Of a stretch of DNA of 64,000 nt, positions 42,287-51,210 are shown piece after piece. The DNA comes from an uncultured Actinomycetes bacterium. GTDB lineage: Bacteria > Actinomycetota > UBA4738 > JBBDTT01. How positions within the stretch are numbered: position 1 is the first letter of the stretch; each line of letters starts with the position of its first letter. The notes under the pieces were generated by a model, which had not been told where the DNA came from, searched no databases, and worked only from the letters and a program-made list of their open reading frames with translations. Location of the stretch: the NCBI GenBank assembly GCA_963742735.1, contig CAVUMN010000002.1, forward strand, positions 73,255 through 137,254, in the 5' to 3' direction. The position numbers and the translations under genes were made by a program.

Positions 42287-42616
42287 GTGGTTGTTCTCGT
42301 CCTGATCGGGGCGTTCTGCTTCTCCGTGGCCACATTGATCTCGCTTTCCACCTCGAGGCCGGTGCAGATCCGCGCCGCACACGAGTACGGGGGATGCGGA
42401 GTCCTTCCGGCGCACTCAGATGAACGCGAGAGGTGCGCGGCGGACTACGCCCGGACGAACCCTGCGCCGTTTCCTTTGAGGTGGATGCTCCTGGCCGGCC
42501 TTTGCGGTATCGCGGCGACCGCGCTCCTCTGGTCAGCGTCTCGCCGGGCAGAATCACGTGGAGCTCGTGATTCCGGATCCGCCGTTCGCCCTCGTGTCTC
42601 GCGCGTCCGCCGGTGA
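42287..42616 (+). CDS. hypothetical small membrane protein
   Basis: 109-aa ORF: TM (VVLVLIGAFCFSVATLISL), a Cys-containing loop, TM (WMLLAGLCGIAATALLW), and a basic tail. Its A/T-ending codons are atypical for this window. Confidence 0.4.
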   Translation: MVVLVLIGAFCFSVATLISLSTSRPVQIRAAHEYGGCGVLPAHSDERERCAADYARTNPAPFPLRWMLLAGLCGIAATALLWSASRRAESRGARDSGSAVRPRVSRVRR

Positions 42617-42984
42617 GGTCTCAGGAGACGCCCCGTTCGACTGCAGTCGCGTTCGTGGTGATCCTGATCCTCCTGCTCGGCTCGCTCTTTACGAGTCTCA
42701 CCCTGCTCCCGGGCACCGTTCTGCTTGAGAGCGACCTTGGGGCGCCGCGGTGGAGTGATTGTTGGCAGGTCGTCGGTGACGCGCGAATGGAGTGTCTCGG
42801 TCCGGCATTCTGGCGAGAGAAGCTGGCGGACACATCGCCCTCGTTCGCCATCACGCTCATCGCGTCCGTGGGAGCGCTCGTGCTGTCCGCTCGGTTTCGC
42901 CTTACGGGCGGGATCGCAGTCTCCGTCGGGGTGTTCGGTGCTGCCGTCTTGGTAAGCGTCGCCGGGGCACTGCGCGTGTCCTGA
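42613..42984 (+). CDS. hypothetical small membrane protein (same architecture as upstream gene)
   Basis: GTG at 42613 overlaps the upstream stop (GTGA). TM (AVAFVVILILLLGSLFTSLTLL), a loop with 2 Cys, then two C-terminal TM segments. Confidence 0.45.
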   Translation: MRSQETPRSTAVAFVVILILLLGSLFTSLTLLPGTVLLESDLGAPRWSDCWQVVGDARMECLGPAFWREKLADTSPSFAITLIASVGALVLSARFRLTGGIAVSVGVFGAAVLVSVAGALRVS

Positions 42985-43034: not shown

Positions 43035-43628
43035 ATGACTCCATCGATTCAGATCCCGGACACGTCGATCGCCGTCGCGTCGCGTGAGCTGGCGCGGGAG
43101 GTGTCGAGCCCCGCGCTGTACCACCACTGCGAGCGGACGTACGCGTTCGGGTCGGTGCTCGGCGAGCGGGAGGGCTTCGAGTTCGACCCGGAGCTGCTGT
43201 ACGTCGCCAGCATCCTGCACGACCTCGGGCTGACCGAGCGCTTCGACGGGCCGGACGAGTTCGAGGTCCAGGGGGCGAACGCGGCGCACGCGTTCCTGAC
43301 CGAGCAGGGATGGGATCCGGCGAAGGCCGACCTGGTCCGCGAGGCGATCACGTTCCACACCCGCCCCGCGAACGAGGACCACGAGCGCAAGGAGGTCCCC
43401 CTGCTCACGATCGGGGCCGGGGTCGACGTCCTGGGCCTGGGGATCGAGGACGTGCCGTCCGAGTGGCTGCATCGCATCGTGGAGGAGTGGCCGCGGGAAG
43501 GGCTCAAGGCCGAGCTGGTCGAGCGGTTCGGCGACCAGGCCCGCCGCAAGCCGGGGTCGTGGATCGGCATGCTCGTCGAGAACCTCGAGTGGCTCGAGCG
43601 GATCCAGGCGGCCCCGTTCGACGAGTGA
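43035..43628 (+). CDS. HD-domain metal-dependent phosphohydrolase
   Basis: 197-aa ORF: YHHCERTYAFGSVLG...LLYVASILHDLGLTERF (the H...HD signature). Confidence 0.8.
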   Translation: MTPSIQIPDTSIAVASRELAREVSSPALYHHCERTYAFGSVLGEREGFEFDPELLYVASILHDLGLTERFDGPDEFEVQGANAAHAFLTEQGWDPAKADLVREAITFHTRPANEDHERKEVPLLTIGAGVDVLGLGIEDVPSEWLHRIVEEWPREGLKAELVERFGDQARRKPGSWIGMLVENLEWLERIQAAPFDE

Positions 43629-44560
43629 GCCGGGGTAGCATCCCGCCCGTGAGCGCCCCTGCCGCCGCCGACACCGACGCCGTCACGCTCGACGAGGCCG
43701 ACCTGCCTGAGGTCTTCCGCTCGGGCAACCGGGTCTCGATGAGCGGGCAGAACCGGTACATCCGGTCCACCGCCGCCCAGCTCATCCTGCTGGTCGTCGC
43801 GGCCGTCGCCGGGGCGATCCAGGTCGCGGGCGACGCCCCCGACGCCGCGGTGATCGTGGCCGCGGCCGCCTTCCTTGGAGCCGCGCTGCTGAAGGTCCAG
43901 GTCATCGCCACGCACCCCGAGCAGGACTGGTACGAGGGGCGGGCCGTCGCCGAGTCCACGAAGACCCTCGCCTGGCGCTACGCCGTGGGGGGCGAGCCGT
44001 TCCCCGTCCGCAAGGGCCCCGAGCGGAAGATGAAGGAGCTGTTCCTGGCGCGGCTGCGCGACATCGGGCAGTCCATCGACCTCCCGCTCGTCTCCGGCAC
44101 GCAGCGCGTCGAACAGATCACCGACGGCATGGAGCGCCTGCGATCCCAGCCCCTCGCCGCGCGCCGGGCGGCCTACGAGCAGGGGCGCCTGCGGGACCAG
44201 CTCGCGTGGTACTCGAGCAAGGCCGTGTGGAACCAGACGCGGGCCCGGCTGTGGAACGGCGGGATGCTCGGGCTGATGGTTGCGGGCGGGGTGATCGCGC
44301 TGGTGAGCCTGAGCTCGGGTATCAACCTGAGCCTGGTGGACGCGATCGCCACCCCGGTGGGGGGCATCGGCGCGTGGATCGCGACGAAGCAGCACCAGAC
44401 CCTGGCCAGCGCTTACTCGGTGACCGCCCGGGAGCTCGCCGACATCCTGGACCTGGCCGAGATGCCGAAGAGCGAGGCCGAGTGGGCGGCCTTCGTCTCC
44501 CACGCGGAGGAGGCCGTCTCCAGGGAACACACGCTGTGGCGGGCCTCACGGGGCAAGTGA
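43625..44560 (+). CDS. DUF4231 / SLATT-family membrane protein (two 2-TM units)
   Basis: GTG at 43625 overlaps the HD gene stop (GTGA); GTG 43649 is the alternative. First TM pair AAQLILLVVAAVAGAIQVAG / AAVIVAAAAFLGAALLKVQVI. WYEGRAVAESTKTLAWRYAVGG. Second TM pair after AWYSSKAVWNQTRARLW. C-terminal AVSREHTLWRASR. Confidence 0.7.
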   Translation: MSRGSIPPVSAPAAADTDAVTLDEADLPEVFRSGNRVSMSGQNRYIRSTAAQLILLVVAAVAGAIQVAGDAPDAAVIVAAAAFLGAALLKVQVIATHPEQDWYEGRAVAESTKTLAWRYAVGGEPFPVRKGPERKMKELFLARLRDIGQSIDLPLVSGTQRVEQITDGMERLRSQPLAARRAAYEQGRLRDQLAWYSSKAVWNQTRARLWNGGMLGLMVAGGVIALVSLSSGINLSLVDAIATPVGGIGAWIATKQHQTLASAYSVTARELADILDLAEMPKSEAEWAAFVSHAEEAVSREHTLWRASRGK

Positions 44561-44615: not shown

Positions 44616-46181
44616 ATGAGTGAGACCCCCGAGGACCGCGAGCACGCCGACCTCCCGCCCGTGCGGGTGCTGATCAGCTACCGCCGGGACGACACCGCGG
44701 GTCACGCCGGACGCCTGTACGACTCGCTCAGCGAGCGCTTCGGCCGGGAGCAGATCTTCATCGACATCGCGGCCATCGAGCCGGGTGTGGACTTCAGCGA
44801 GACGATCGCCCGCGAGGTCGGCTCCTGCGACGTCCTGCTCGCCGTCATCGGCCGCCAGTGGCTGACCGTCACCGACGCCAAGGGCCGGCGCCGGCTGGAC
44901 AACCCCGACGACTACCACCGGCTGGAGATCCAGGCCGCCCTGGAGCGCAACATCCGGGTCATCCCGTGCCTGGTCCAGAACGCGCAGATGCCGGCCCTCG
45001 ACGACCTCCCCGAGGCGATTCAGCGGCTCGCGCTGCGCAACGCGCTGGAGCTCTCCGACGAGCGGTGGAGCTACGACGTCGGACGCCTCGACGCGGCCAT
45101 CTCGAGCGTCGCCCGCGCGAAGGCCCTGCGCCCGAAGGAGGAAGACGAGGCGCCGAAGGAGCCCGAGCCCGAGGAGCCCGAAGCGCCGCCGACCATCGAG
45201 GAGCTTCAGGCAAACGCGGTACCGGAGGAGATCCCCCCGGTCGAGGAACCGGCAGGCGAGGCCGAGCCACTCCCGACCCCCGCGGTCCCGATGGAGCCGG
45301 ACGCGTTCGTCCACGTCGAACCGCCCGACCTGCCGGGGACGCCACCGCCACCACCCACCCCGATGCCCGAACCAACGCCCGAGCCCGAACCCGAACCAAC
45401 GGAGCCCGCCCCCGAGCCCGAGCCCGAGCCCGAGCCGGCACCGGCGGCGTTCGTTCCGCCGCCGCCGGTCGAGCCCGCGGCGATGGTGACCGCGCCGATC
45501 ACGCCCGCGCCGCCCACGGAGTCCTTCCCCCCGGTCGCCCCACCCCCGCCCCCGCCCGGGCCCTCCGAGCCGAAGCGATCCAGGCGAGGGTTGTTGATCG
45601 GGATCGTCATCGCGGCCGTCATCCTCGGGGGCGGCGCCACGGCCTTCGTCCTCACCCGAGACGACACCCCGGAGCGCACCATCCCAACCGTCGACCCGAC
45701 CTCCCCGACCCCGACCATCACCGTCACCACCACGACGACCCCGGCGCCCGCCGACCCGCACGCCGAGCTCATCGCCCGCGTCCCGGCGTCGTTCAGCGCC
45801 ACCTGCGCGGACGACGACGCGAACTACCTTCCGGACCTGGCCCTGGGCGGGATCCGGTGCACCGCTTCCGGGATCGAGGTCTGGTACTACCTGTTCTCGA
45901 CCGGCGCGGACGTGGACGACTGGTACTCGCGGCGGATCGCGGACACCGGGATCACCCAGGGCATGGGCGGCGACTGCGCGTCCGACGACACCGCCGAGGA
46001 CCAGCTGCAGGTGGGCGGCGTCGACGTCGAGGGCCGGCTGTTCTGCCTGACGAACGACCGCGGCCGGTGGATCGAGTGGAAGCGCACCGACTATCGGATC
46101 TACGCGTACGTGCTTCGCGCCGACGGGAACCGCTCCTCGCTGTACGAGTTCTGGACCGGCGCGGGACCGAACGCCCTCTAG
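44616..46181 (+). CDS. TIR-domain protein: N-terminal TIR, Pro/Glu-rich linker, single TM helix, C-terminal 4-Cys extracytoplasmic domain
   Basis: 521-aa ORF. TIR_2-like VRVLISYRRDDTAGHAGRLYDSL...IFIDIAAIEPGVDFSETI...CDVLLAVIGRQW...DYHRLEIQAALERNIRVIPCLV. TM GLLIGIVIAAVILGGGATAFVL at about 45588-45656. Confidence 0.85.
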   Translation: MSETPEDREHADLPPVRVLISYRRDDTAGHAGRLYDSLSERFGREQIFIDIAAIEPGVDFSETIAREVGSCDVLLAVIGRQWLTVTDAKGRRRLDNPDDYHRLEIQAALERNIRVIPCLVQNAQMPALDDLPEAIQRLALRNALELSDERWSYDVGRLDAAISSVARAKALRPKEEDEAPKEPEPEEPEAPPTIEELQANAVPEEIPPVEEPAGEAEPLPTPAVPMEPDAFVHVEPPDLPGTPPPPPTPMPEPTPEPEPEPTEPAPEPEPEPEPAPAAFVPPPPVEPAAMVTAPITPAPPTESFPPVAPPPPPPGPSEPKRSRRGLLIGIVIAAVILGGGATAFVLTRDDTPERTIPTVDPTSPTPTITVTTTTTPAPADPHAELIARVPASFSATCADDDANYLPDLALGGIRCTASGIEVWYYLFSTGADVDDWYSRRIADTGITQGMGGDCASDDTAEDQLQVGGVDVEGRLFCLTNDRGRWIEWKRTDYRIYAYVLRADGNRSSLYEFWTGAGPNAL

Positions 46182-47857: not shown

Positions 47858-49465
47858 TCAGCTGCTGGCGGTCTGGACGTCGTTCACCAGGCGAAGCGTG
47901 TGCATCAGGACCGCGTCGCCGAAGCACGCGTCGAGCCCGTAGGCGTCCTCGTACTCCGACAGGACGAGCTCGTCCTGTCCCACTCCGTCCGTCACCTCAC
48001 TGGGGACGCTGCCGACGAACCCGACGCCCTGGCGCCCGACGTGGTCGGTCTCGAAGGACTGCATGATGTAGCCGAGGCCGTCGTTCACCTGGGCCAGCGG
48101 GAAGGCGATGAACGGCGTCTCCTCCTCGATGGTGTTCGACAGGTTGGAGAACGTCTCGCCGGGGGCGCCGGTGAAGATCAGGTTCCCGACTCGGGCTGCG
48201 GACACCGCGGTGCTCACCCCGAGCGGAGACGCCGAGCGGCACCAGCGGAGCTCGCTCTTGCCGGCCCCCACGAGGCCGAGCGGGGTGAACGGCCGATCGA
48301 AGAACCCGACCGCGCCCAGCGTGCCGAGCGGGATGTTCGTGATGGGCTGGGTCCAGAACGTCTGCCTGACCACCACGTCGGTGCCGGTCACGGCCTGGCC
48401 GCCGCCGGGCTGCGGGATCAGGTTGGCCAGCCCGTTGCCGACCCCCTGAGTTCCGCCCGAGTTGCTCATGTTGCCCAGGCCGGTCTGGAAGAAGAGGCCG
48501 ACCCCGCCGAACCGATCCTCCACGCGCTTCTCGAAGACGGCGGGGAAGTCGGCGTGCGCGGTGCCGCCGTTGTTCCCCACCGACGTCGGGTGGGCGGCGT
48601 AGGCGCCGAGGGTCCCGATGGTCGCCCCGGTGGCGCTGTTGGTGAACCGCGCCCACGAGAACGTGTTCTCCTCCGCGGACCAGTACAGGTCGCGGCGCTC
48701 GCCGTTGAACTGCCGGGCGAGCACGTCGCCGGCCTCCACCGAGGCGGGGACGCGGTTGGCGATGGCGTTGCCCACGGAGGTGCGGATCGCGTCCGCCACC
48801 TGCTCCATGTACCAGCTGGGCACGCCGCCCCATCCGCCGATGAAGTCCGGGGCGGCGTGGCTGTGCGTCGAGGCGAGCATGAACCCGGCCGGGTTGAAGC
48901 CGTGTTCCGCCCCGAGCTCCTCGGCCAGGTCGAAGGCGCCGCAGCCGTCGCAGAGCTTGCCGTACTTGCCGAAGTAGGAGGTGCCGTCCAGGATCGACAG
49001 GACGAACGAGTCCCGGCCGTCGGAGATGAACAGCGTGCGGACCCACAGGCCGTACTGCTGGTCCCAGGCCGTGATGGGGTTCATCGGGCCGATGCCGAAC
49101 CCGCCCTGGTACAGGCAGCTCGGGTTCTCCGGCCAGGTCAGCCGGAGGTCGCCCAGGTGGCCGAACGCCTCGGGGGCGTCGTCACCCATGGTGGCGCAGC
49201 CCTCCTTCGCCCAGGTCCCGCCGTAGGCGGCGGGCTTCGGCTCGATCGACACCTTCGCGGCGCCGACGACGAACTGGCCGGGGACGAGCGCCGCGGCCGC
49301 GGACTCCGAGCCGGCCTCGCCGGCCAGGAGGGGGGCCTCGATCCCGAGATTGTCGGCCGTCCCGGAGACCGGGGCCAGCCCGACTCCTGCCCACGCCACC
49401 GAGACGGTGAGCACGCCGGTGAGGAGCGAGACGAACAGGGTTCGTACGGGACGTCGAGCGGGCAT
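47858..49465 (-). CDS. neutral/alkaline ceramidase-like hydrolase, secreted or membrane-anchored (paralog 1)
   Basis: ATG at 49465 with GGAGGA upstream. Anchor RTLFVSLLTGVLTVSVAWAG. VGAAKVSIEP...LWVRTLFISDGRDSFVLSILD...LASTHSHAAPD resembles the ceramidase N-terminal domain. Confidence 0.65.
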   Translation of the reverse strand: MPARRPVRTLFVSLLTGVLTVSVAWAGVGLAPVSGTADNLGIEAPLLAGEAGSESAAAALVPGQFVVGAAKVSIEPKPAAYGGTWAKEGCATMGDDAPEAFGHLGDLRLTWPENPSCLYQGGFGIGPMNPITAWDQQYGLWVRTLFISDGRDSFVLSILDGTSYFGKYGKLCDGCGAFDLAEELGAEHGFNPAGFMLASTHSHAAPDFIGGWGGVPSWYMEQVADAIRTSVGNAIANRVPASVEAGDVLARQFNGERRDLYWSAEENTFSWARFTNSATGATIGTLGAYAAHPTSVGNNGGTAHADFPAVFEKRVEDRFGGVGLFFQTGLGNMSNSGGTQGVGNGLANLIPQPGGGQAVTGTDVVVRQTFWTQPITNIPLGTLGAVGFFDRPFTPLGLVGAGKSELRWCRSASPLGVSTAVSAARVGNLIFTGAPGETFSNLSNTIEEETPFIAFPLAQVNDGLGYIMQSFETDHVGRQGVGFVGSVPSEVTDGVGQDELVLSEYEDAYGLDACFGDAVLMHTLRLVNDVQTASS

Positions 49466-49568
49466 TCGATTTCCTCCGGGAGTGGGAGCGCTGCGGGCGA
49501 GTACTGCCAGACTCATTCCAGGGAGGGGCCTCGATTCCTGCCCGGCGCGCCGAAGCCGCCGGCTCGAG

Positions 49569-51113
49569 CTAGAGGGACCCCATGAGGGTCAAGGTCTTCT
49601 CCAGGACCGCGTCGCCGAAGCACGCGTCCAGGCTGAACGCGTCCTCGTACTCCGCGACGGGGTCCCCGGCGAAGCCGGTGCCCTGGCGCCCGAGGTGGTC
49701 GGTCTCGAAGGACTGAATGATGTAGCCGAGCCCGTCGTTGACCTGGGCCAGCGGGAACGCGACGAAGGGCGCCTTCTCCTCGATGGTGTTGGTCAGGTTC
49801 GAGAACGTCTCGCCGGGGGCGCCGGTGAACCACAGGTCCCCGACTTTCGCCCCCGAGACGGAGGTGTTCACCCCGAGGGGTGAGACGGAGCGACACCGGC
49901 GCACGTCGTTCTCGCCCTCGTCGACCAGCGAGCCCGCCGAGAACGAGCGGTCGAAGAACCCGGCCGTGCCGAGGGTCCCCAGCGGGATGTTCGTGATCGG
50001 CTGGTCCCAGAACACCTGCCCGACCTTCACGTCGGTCCCGGTCACCCGCTCGCCCTGCCCCTTGCCGGGGACCAGGGCGGCCAGGCCGTTGCCCATCTCC
50101 TCGGTGCTCCCGCGCGGGCTCATGTTGCCGAGCCCGGTCTGGAAGAACATGCCGATGCCGCCGAAGCGCTGCTCGACCTTCCGGTCGAACACCCCGGGGA
50201 AGTCGGCGTTGGCGACGCCCATGCTCTCGTCCGCGGTGACCGGGTGTGCCGCGAACGCGCCCAGCGTCGCGATGGTCTTGCTCGTGCCGGCGCGGTAGAA
50301 GCGGACCCAGGACATCGTGGGGTCCTCGGACGACCGGTAGAAGTCGCGGCGCTCGCCGCTGAAGTCGCGGGCGAGCACCTCGCCCGCCTCGACGCTCGCG
50401 GGCTTCCGCTGGGCGTACGCCCCGCCGACTGCGCCGCGGATCGCGTCGGCCACCTGCTCCATGTACCAGCCGGGGACGCCGCCCCACCCGCCGATGAAGT
50501 CGGGCGCCGTGTGACTGTGGGTCGAGGCGAGCATGAACCCGGCCGGATCGAAGTGGTACTTCGCGCCGAGCTCCTGGGCCAGGTCGATGGCGCCGCAGCC
50601 GTCGCACAGGTTGTTGAAGTGACCGAAGTACGAGGTCCCGTCGAGGATCGCCAGGACCAGCGCGTCCTTGCCGTCGGAGATGTAGAGCGCCCGAACCCAC
50701 AAGCCGTACTTCGTGTCCCACGAGGTGATGGGGTTCATCGGCCCGATCCCGTAGCCGCCGCTGTACAGGCAGCCCGGGTCCTCGGGCCAGGGCAGCCGGA
50801 TGTCGCCCAGGTGACCGAACGTCGCGGCGCCCGCGTCCTCCTCCAGCGTCGCGCAGCCCTCCTTCTGCCAGGTCGCGCCGTACTTGGCGGGCTTCGGCTC
50901 GATGGAGACCTTCGCGGCGCCGACCGTGAACTGGCGCCCGCGGGGGAGCGCCGCGGACGTCTCGCCCCCGCCCTTCGAAGGCGCGGCCGCGTCGAGCACC
51001 GGGTCGAGGAGGCCCTTCACGGGGGCCAGGCCGATCCCGGCCCAGGCGGCGCCCACGGTCAGCGCACCCGTGAGGGCCGCGACGATCAGGGTGCGAACGG
51101 TGCGTCCAGTCAT
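49569..51113 (-). CDS. neutral/alkaline ceramidase-like hydrolase (paralog 2)
   Basis: ATG at 51113 with GGAGGA upstream. It shows the same motifs (VGAAKVSIEP, LWVRALYISDGKDALVLAILD, LASTHSHTAPD). Confidence 0.65.
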   Translation of the reverse strand: MTGRTVRTLIVAALTGALTVGAAWAGIGLAPVKGLLDPVLDAAAPSKGGGETSAALPRGRQFTVGAAKVSIEPKPAKYGATWQKEGCATLEEDAGAATFGHLGDIRLPWPEDPGCLYSGGYGIGPMNPITSWDTKYGLWVRALYISDGKDALVLAILDGTSYFGHFNNLCDGCGAIDLAQELGAKYHFDPAGFMLASTHSHTAPDFIGGWGGVPGWYMEQVADAIRGAVGGAYAQRKPASVEAGEVLARDFSGERRDFYRSSEDPTMSWVRFYRAGTSKTIATLGAFAAHPVTADESMGVANADFPGVFDRKVEQRFGGIGMFFQTGLGNMSPRGSTEEMGNGLAALVPGKGQGERVTGTDVKVGQVFWDQPITNIPLGTLGTAGFFDRSFSAGSLVDEGENDVRRCRSVSPLGVNTSVSGAKVGDLWFTGAPGETFSNLTNTIEEKAPFVAFPLAQVNDGLGYIIQSFETDHLGRQGTGFAGDPVAEYEDAFSLDACFGDAVLEKTLTLMGSL

Positions 51114-51210
51114 CGAGTCCTCCACGCGTCGCCGTTGGCAGGAGGCAGGGCGCCGCACCGCCATACCTGACAGATTTCCCCGGATTCGCTCGGATTCCTG
51201 CTCGGCGGAG

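Follow-up and report, generated by a model that had tools for sequence, protein, structure and literature searches.

A candidate surface-triggered SARM1-like TIR receptor encoded beside a SLATT gene in an uncultured actinomycete

In the 64,000-nucleotide stretch of an uncultured Actinomycetes bacterium analysed here (the whole of which is called the window; GenBank assembly GCA_963742735.1, contig CAVUMN010000002.1, positions 73,255 to 137,254), the plus-strand gene at 44616..46181 encodes a 521-aa protein that joins an N-terminal TIR domain, through one transmembrane (TM) helix, to a C-terminal domain with four cysteines. The locus raises the question of what such a protein could sense on one side of the membrane and to what it could signal on the other. 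A preliminary description of the window had recognised the receptor-like layout, to which we added a SARM1-like catalytic TIR domain and an adjacent SLATT gene, the best clue to the mechanism. We propose that the protein would be a surface-triggered SARM1-like TIR receptor signalling to the SLATT product as its effector, the two forming an immune-type pair, and we put the probability of this reading at about one half.

Layout and membrane topology of the TIR protein

The open reading frame (ORF) at 44616..46181 was open, and its translation was exactly the 521-aa protein of the preliminary description. The GC content at third codon positions was 93%, compared to a GC content of 71% for the window, as expected for a real gene in a high-GC genome. 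A homolog search with the full-length protein returned 296 matches, only five of which (P0002-P0006) carried the whole architecture.

The preliminary description had placed a TIR domain at residues ~15-165, a low-complexity linker at ~170-320, the motif KRSRRG with one TM helix, a Thr/Pro stalk, and a four-Cys domain of ~140 aa, and each of these segments was recovered. The SARM1-like TIR domain, predicted to be cytoplasmic, covers aa ~15-170 (44658..45125, plus strand, as are all segments of the gene); Pfam TIR_2 (PF13676) matched aa 18-142 with 44.3 bits (cut-off 28), and the profile alignment with SARM1 extended to ~aa 165. It is followed by an acidic Pro/Glu-rich linker at aa ~171-319 (45126..45572), in which aa 169-319 contained 38% Pro and 20% Glu, with 4 Lys or Arg against 33 Asp or Glu residues, and whose DNA carries 6/12-nt tandem repeats at 45357-45436. 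The basic patch KRSRRG and the TM helix occupy aa 320-346 (45573..45653); the segment 326-346, which is followed by TRDD, gave a Kyte-Doolittle 19-mer maximum of 2.42 and was the sole segment above the threshold. A Thr/Pro-rich stalk at aa ~347-384 (45654..45767) contained 12 Thr and 8 Pro among the 34 residues of aa 351-384, and the same region was Ser/Thr/Pro-rich in all five full-architecture homologs. The last segment, aa 385-521 (45768..46178), is a predicted extracytoplasmic alpha/beta domain of 137 aa, with cysteines at positions 397, 415, 454, and 477 that were invariant in P0002-P0006. In the full-length AlphaFold2 model, the TIR domain (18-171) and the C-terminal domain (380-515) were folded, and the predicted local distance difference test score (pLDDT) over 175-378 was mostly below 50 and nearly everywhere below 60, so that the linker is predicted to be disordered and the stalk also has low pLDDT.

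The TIR domain belongs to a large, poorly described, mostly TM-anchored clade whose members are 50-65% identical inside the TIR domain and carry interchangeable C-terminal parts (PASTA, FGE-sulfatase, solute-binding, PD40/WD40, cupredoxin-like, TPR, cyclase, and NB-ARC). Among the 120 best matches of the full-length search, the TIR domain was N-terminal in 117 and was followed by at least one hydrophobic segment in 95. TM anchoring is the norm in this clade, and the layout of the window protein is not exceptional in sequence space. Its linker is exceptionally long, with ~154 aa between TIR domain and TM helix compared to a clade median of 38.5.

The orientation in the membrane was assessed in the 76 matches with exactly one hydrophobic segment after the TIR domain and at least 60 residues beyond it. 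Lys and Arg averaged 4.2 in the TIR-side flank compared to 1.4 in the C-terminal-side flank, and the N-terminal flank was richer in these residues in 68 of the 76 members (Wilcoxon P = 4e-13). The 521-aa protein has no N-terminal signal peptide. The positive-inside statistics and the missing signal peptide together indicate that the TIR domain lies in the cytoplasm and the C-terminus outside, an orientation that would give an NAD-using domain access to the pool of nicotinamide adenine dinucleotide (NAD+) in the cytoplasm, on which it depends. The receptor-like topology of the preliminary description is likewise favoured by the positive-inside signal and by the folded C-terminal domain with its extracytoplasmic context in relatives. 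Of the outcomes that, by that description, would speak against this layout (a cytoplasmic C-terminal domain, a segment that does not span the membrane, or a disordered C-terminal region lacking conserved homologs), none was seen; the computed picture was of a predicted membrane-spanning segment and of a predicted outside domain that is folded and has many relatives.

TIR domain and four-cysteine ectodomain

A search of the Protein Data Bank (PDB) with the single TIR sequence returned nothing significant, and a profile of 16 clade sequences was needed. Among solved structures, this profile matched the human SARM1 TIR over the whole domain (E 2e-13); every other solved TIR scored E 1.8e-6 or weaker, and the TIRs of Toll-like receptors (TLRs) and bacterial Tcp/AbTir were marginal. 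Foldseek with the full-length model placed SARM1 TIR entries at all of ranks 1-16, with target-normalised TM-scores of 0.65-0.71 for the isolated SARM1 TIR-domain entries, so that profile and fold alike single out SARM1 as the best-matching solved structure. Residue E104 (motif DDYHRLE) aligned with the Glu of SARM1 DWVHKE, which is E642 by a numbering derived from chain offsets in the profile alignment, and E104 was invariant across the clade in alignments A1, A5, and A7. The clade and SARM1 also have in common the motif SYRR, the BB-loop Gly (EPG in the former, EAG in the latter), and an aromatic residue before the Glu. We take E642 to be the catalytic residue of SARM1, as was reportedly described by Essuman in 2017, and SARM1 acts by consuming NAD+. 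The conservation of E104, together with the SARM1-like profile and fold, suggests that the TIR domain is very probably an NAD+ glycohydrolase/cyclase. No other bacterial TIRs compared here came as close to the SARM1 TIR as this clade.

Scaffolding is the role of many TIR domains, and the window TIR might likewise serve in assembly only, recruiting other factors as in TLR/MyD88 signalling and having no enzymatic activity. The invariance of the catalytic Glu and of other SARM1 active-site features across the clade argues against this role, as do the best sequence and structure matches, which are to enzymatic SARM1 and not to TLR or IL-1R; we consider a purely structural TIR highly improbable.

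The C-terminal domain, modelled alone with AlphaFold2, reached a pLDDT of 87.7 and a predicted TM-score of 0.85, indicating that it is not disordered. It matched no Pfam family at E up to 1 and no NCBIfam model, no Pfam family covered it in the 104 family members scanned, and its profile found no significant match among PDB sequences. A word-index homolog search with the domain alone also returned nothing, which was a false negative of that method, since an exhaustive profile search recovered 909 representative clusters at E up to 1e-3 (249 at E up to 1e-10). Members of this family carry one to three tandem copies per protein. The four cysteines, G473, W488, and W513 were conserved at 90% or more among 150 family members, and exactly four cysteines were present in 191 of 193 near-complete copies, suggesting a putative disulfide-stabilised ectodomain. 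The window copy fits the family definition, namely ~135 aa, four cysteines, G473/W488/W513, and a position behind a TM helix, signal peptide, or lipobox.

The Pfam partners of the domain in the 104 members were Pkinase (27), PD40 (6), FHA (5), TIR_2 (5), PASTA (3), and trypsin with PDZ (2); nSTAND1, CHAT, guanylate cyclase, and fn3 each occurred once. The resemblance to sensor domains of actinobacterial Ser/Thr kinases noted in the preliminary description was borne out by the 27 Pkinase proteins, and the search for fusion partners that it had suggested led to kinases, FHA, CHAT, STAND, and cyclase proteins. Named members came from Egibacteraceae, Thermoleophilia, and Parafrankia. In kinases, the domain always followed a TM helix, and many short family members started with a lipobox or signal peptide; its presence behind the TM helix of kinases, in lipoproteins, and in secreted proteins gives independent support for an extracytoplasmic location. 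Sensing by this domain would accordingly take place outside the cell.

The structure prediction and Foldseek search that had been suggested for the C-terminal domain gave a confident model, and only the fold comparison with the PDB fell short, with TM-scores of at most 0.44 (TM1622, TiME, Apa, DcrB, PsbP, and Dip2269). These weak matches suggest an extracytoplasmic alpha/beta-sandwich type of fold for the modelled domain. Foldseek against viral structures found nothing significant. A PknH_C identity of the ectodomain was rejected: Pfam gave no such match here (E up to 1) or in the 104 members, and no PknH entry was present among the 50 best listed Foldseek PDB matches.

The distribution of this ectodomain bears on a second alternative, in which the protein would be a housekeeping receptor for cell-wall, developmental, or stress signals, similar to the PASTA-type and other receptor kinases, and an NAD-derived messenger (ADP-ribose, ADPR, or cyclic ADP-ribose, cADPR) would tune physiology, for example dormancy or, by way of SLATT, the permeability of the membrane. 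The domain is mainly common to Ser/Thr kinases and FHA proteins, which belong to classical actinobacterial signal transduction, and sister members of the TIR clade carry PASTA or solute-binding ectodomains. Its fusion to the conflict or cell-death effectors CHAT, nSTAND1, and TIR points away from housekeeping, and we regard this alternative as unlikely, also in view of the gene neighbourhood described below.

The SLATT partner and its association with TIR genes

The presumed effector gene (43649..44560, plus strand) starts with GTG and encodes a 303-aa protein. It is located 55 nt upstream of the TIR gene on the same strand, and no terminator-like site was found between the two. The Pfam matches were SLATT_3 (1e-41, 143 bits) and SLATT_1 (2e-31, 109 bits), in agreement with NCBIfam, and the protein has 2+2 hydrophobic TM helices. 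SLATT was reportedly defined by Burroughs et al. in 2015. It is a predicted pore-forming effector responsive to a nucleotide signal (PMC7159879). Orthologs in two related loci were 74% (L002) and 49% (L003) identical and occupied the same position.

A scan of reference genomes with a SLATT alignment yielded 17 loci, mostly from Streptomyces. In 13 of the 17, a TIR_2 gene was directly adjacent on the same strand (10 downstream and 3 upstream), and the SLATT stop and TIR start codons of such pairs often overlapped. The clade-specific TIR hidden Markov model (HMM) missed the TIRs beside Streptomyces SLATT genes, which were detected by Pfam and by a broader HMM. The non-TIR parts of SLATT-adjacent TIR proteins were swappable, being WD40, fn3, or a TM helix with the four-Cys domain.

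The reverse count, made in metagenomes, started from 80 loci of the broad TIR clade, 21 of which had adequate flanks, and a SLATT gene was present in only 1 of these 21. The SLATT family is thus nearly always found with a TIR gene, and TIR-TM proteins are usually found without SLATT. This asymmetric coupling is the pattern expected if the TIR protein were the generator of a signal and SLATT one of several optional readers. In another locus (L027:6001-9803), a gene for a 655-aa TIR-TM-ectodomain protein was followed, with stop/start overlap, by a gene for a 612-aa LSDAT_prok(SLOG)-DUF4231-SLATT_1 protein. This SLOG-SLATT partner ties the TM-anchored TIR clade to a SLATT effector with a SLOG sensor and implies the reading of a diffusible TIR product.

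Based on these data, we propose a two-gene cassette composed of the TIR protein and the upstream SLATT_3+SLATT_1 four-TM protein. The TIR protein would be bitopic, with the N-terminus inside and the C-terminus outside, and its flexible acidic linker, single TM helix, and Thr/Pro stalk would join a cytoplasmic SARM1-type NAD+ glycohydrolase/cyclase to the ectodomain. An envelope cue would alter how the ectodomain oligomerises, and the cytoplasmic TIR domains would then assemble into an active form, cleave NAD+, and release an ADPR-type signal, most likely canonical cADPR by analogy with SARM1 and type VII Thoeris. The signal would open or polymerise the SLATT protein in the membrane while NAD+ is also depleted, and growth arrest or cell death would follow, presumably in an anti-phage or other conflict.

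Several observations weigh against this proposal. Besides the single SLATT gene among the 21 flanked loci, an ortholog locus (L001) has the TIR gene without a SLATT gene, and in L028, which encodes a TIR protein bearing the four-Cys domain twice, no SLATT gene is adjacent either. The SLATT protein matched none of the PADLOC models, the ectodomain found no close fold in the PDB, and the locus is flanked by the core genes recO, uppS, and GCS2, and so does not look like a typical defence island. A GC or compositional anomaly, tRNA genes, and mobile-element genes were looked for at the locus and not found; a defence island or mobile element found no support in the composition and neighbouring genes of the locus, the cassette content of which nevertheless varies among relatives. 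In addition, the clade HMM scored below 11 bits on three published type VII ThsB TIRs, compared to 48 bits on SARM1. By these scores, the window TIR appears unrelated in sequence, beyond the fold, to the three validated type VII ThsB proteins. Since type VII TIRs themselves fall into several different clusters (10.64898/2025.12.03.692087), strict membership in those of the validated systems may not be required.

The loci that lack SLATT (L001 and L028) indicate that the TIR protein can work without it, and the window protein could be an autonomous suicide receptor, self-contained and acting by NAD+ depletion like SARM1, with SLATT dispensable, independent, or auxiliary. The scarcity of SLATT neighbours across the clade suits this explanation, as do the other members found within TIR arrays or next to genes for CHAT proteins or contractile injection systems, and the likeness of the TIR to SARM1, which consumes NAD+. 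The strong association counted from the SLATT side, with its stop/start overlaps, speaks for a functional pair instead, as do the retention of the SLATT link in 3 of 4 ortholog contexts and the SLOG-SLATT partner of L027. We judge the autonomous receptor a lesser possibility, somewhat doubtful, and keep the receptor-effector pair as the preferred explanation.

In the loci of relatives, the site behind recO-uppS was conserved and its gene content varied. The order was HD-SLATT-TIR-TIR2-GCS2 in L002 and SLATT-TIR-TIR2 in L003-L005. In L002 and L003, two tandem TIR-TM-ectodomain genes follow one SLATT gene; one of the second TIR proteins has the same four-Cys domain, and the other has a different ectodomain. 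The latter (L003:6259-7644) has an ectodomain of ~220 aa with no Pfam match, which may be another uncharacterised sensor domain. The conserved site by recO-uppS, the native composition, and the apparently vertical inheritance would suit the housekeeping receptor considered above. Two points are at odds with it: between the conserved flanks, the loci differ in whether they have SLATT and HD and in carrying one or two TIR genes, the way variable defence hotspots do, and every experimentally studied TIR+SLATT pair is anti-phage.

A gene for an HD-domain protein, resembling cyanamide hydratase (Pfam HD; partial match to TIGR03401), is located at 43035..43628 (plus strand), 20 nt upstream of the SLATT gene, and a 76%-identical copy has the same position in L002. 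The gene was absent from every other SLATT or TIR locus examined, and the HD protein was rejected as a general third component, being found only in the window and L002. It could be an accessory confined to this lineage, for instance a phosphohydrolase that degrades the signal, or a neighbour with no relation to the cassette. Two plus-strand ORFs of 109 and 123 aa (42287-42616 and 42613-42984), located between uppS and the HD gene, overlap by 4 nt; their products have hydrophobic segments and no family match, and L002 has a peptidyl-prolyl isomerase gene in their place. Downstream of the TIR gene, two minus-strand tandem paralogs (47858-49516 and 49569-51164) encode proteins of ~530-550 aa with N-terminal signal-anchor-like segments, long near-identical stretches, and no Pfam match.

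Further arrangements were observed in the other loci. In eight of them (L006, L008, L011, L014, L015, L018, L019, and L022; Streptomyces, Actinomycetota), a SLATT_3+SLATT_1 gene is directly followed by a gene for a TIR_2-WD40 protein of ~1000 aa, and in L009, L010, and L016, a large TIR gene is located upstream of SLATT instead. This SLATT/TIR_2-WD40 cassette seems to be widespread in actinobacteria and related to type VII Thoeris, with WD40 as the cytoplasmic sensor. In Streptomyces sp. Pv4-95 (L017:7455-11762; NZ_CP127172.1), SLATT and TIR-WD40 are in one uninterrupted frame. The SLATT C-terminus there reads 'SREHTPVARFPHV...' as compared to 'SREHTLWRASH*', pointing to a frameshift into the TIR frame that overlaps it, and the single frame reflects either a natural fusion of SLATT with TIR-WD40 or an error in sequencing.

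Members of the TIR clade had other neighbours as well. A RES-domain gene was next to one of them. Three consecutive TIR genes (413 aa; 455-aa TIR-TM-PASTA; 876-aa TIR-TPR) in L023/L024:4726-10058 are located downstream of a gene for a 1870-aa hydrolase-CHAT-TPR protein. In L025/L026:1-7062, a TIR-TM protein with a cupredoxin-like ectodomain is encoded divergently to a contractile injection system cluster (sheath, tube, gp19, and VgrG-like), with CHAT-TPR and S8 peptidase genes nearby.

Implications and comparison with known systems

Extended beyond the window, these results lead us to a broader proposal, offered tentatively and with the odds somewhat against it, of a large transmembrane TIR receptor family in actinobacteria and other soil bacteria. 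A SARM1-type NADase in the cytoplasm would be switched on from outside by interchangeable sensors (four-Cys, PASTA, solute-binding, PD40, cupredoxin-like, and others), and in the lineage of the window its product, probably cADPR, would gate SLATT, making an outside-in Thoeris and a possible prokaryotic stock of the SARM1 TIR. To our knowledge, the characterised bacterial TIR immune systems all sense infection inside the cell. An outside-in Thoeris, if real, could already react when phages adsorb or the envelope is damaged, and bacterial TIR/cADPR signalling could then be driven from the cell surface by a receptor logic so far tied to animal TLRs. The components individually belong to known families; the appeal of the locus lies in the idea of a surface-sensor TIR and in the undescribed ectodomain family. 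This ectodomain (~900 representative clusters), common to kinases, FHA, CHAT, STAND, cyclase, and TIR proteins of Actinomycetota, merits definition as a family, and the SLATT(3+1)-TIR cassettes with swappable sensors are natural chimeras for dissecting TIR activation. No explicit description of bacterial TIR-TM-ectodomain proteins was found in the literature searched, which is an absence of evidence within that scope. Extracellular TM-linked sensor domains have been noted in other conflict systems (PMC7159879).

In its layout, the window protein resembles the actinobacterial receptor Ser/Thr kinases, such as the PASTA kinases, which have the same order of cytoplasmic output, linker, one TM helix, and ectodomain. 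Kinases of Egibacteraceae, Parafrankia, and Thermoleophilia carry the identical four-Cys domain type in one to three copies. The window protein differs from receptor kinases in that its output is a TIR and not a kinase domain, and its ectodomain is neither PASTA nor PknH_C. The comparison with SARM1 concerns the TIR domain. In SARM1, this domain is C-terminal and regulated by cytoplasmic ARM and SAM domains, whereas in the window protein it is N-terminal and tied through the TM helix to an outside domain. Between its BB-loop region and its catalytic helix, the clade TIR also has an extra insert of ~8 residues (GRRRLDNP region).

The likeness to a Toll-like receptor drawn in the preliminary description stands for the layout, since Toll-like and IL-1 receptors and the window protein are all single-pass, with an outside sensor and a cytoplasmic TIR. 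It does not extend to the polarity, which is inverted (N-terminal TIR, type II-like, no signal peptide), or to the TIR type, which is that of the SARM1-like enzymes; the output would presumably be enzymatic and not adaptor recruitment as in TLRs. No LRR or immunoglobulin ectodomain was found on the window protein, and TLR TIRs scored far below SARM1. The TIR + SLOG-SLATT systems (the class of Burroughs et al. 2015) have a logic in common with the proposed pair, a TIR generator and a SLATT pore. The SLATT part of the L027 partner has the same module order as the window SLATT protein, which has no SLOG sensor, unlike the SLOG-SLATT systems. Candidates of the 'SLOG and 4TM' type gave no defence in published tests (10.64898/2025.12.03.692087).

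The closest counterpart by gene content is type VII Thoeris, in which operons of a ThsB TIR and a ThsH SLATT protein have been validated as anti-phage systems in a preprint of December 2025 (10.64898/2025.12.03.692087). Type VII TIRs make canonical cADPR upon infection, cADPR supplied from outside poisons cells that carry the system, the gene order is effector then TIR, the systems are found in Actinomycetota, and their TIRs are spread over several different clusters (10.64898/2025.12.03.692087). Validated ThsB proteins are apparently soluble proteins of other TIR clusters, whereas the window TIR is SARM1-like, membrane-tethered, and provided with a large ectodomain. ThsH and the upstream protein of the window are both annotated as SLATT. 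The two tandem TIR genes behind one effector in the sister loci resemble multi-sensor Thoeris loci. In both type VII Thoeris and the window, the gene for a SLATT membrane protein that has no separate sensor domain is followed on the same strand by a TIR gene, and judged by gene content, the window pair fits type VII Thoeris.

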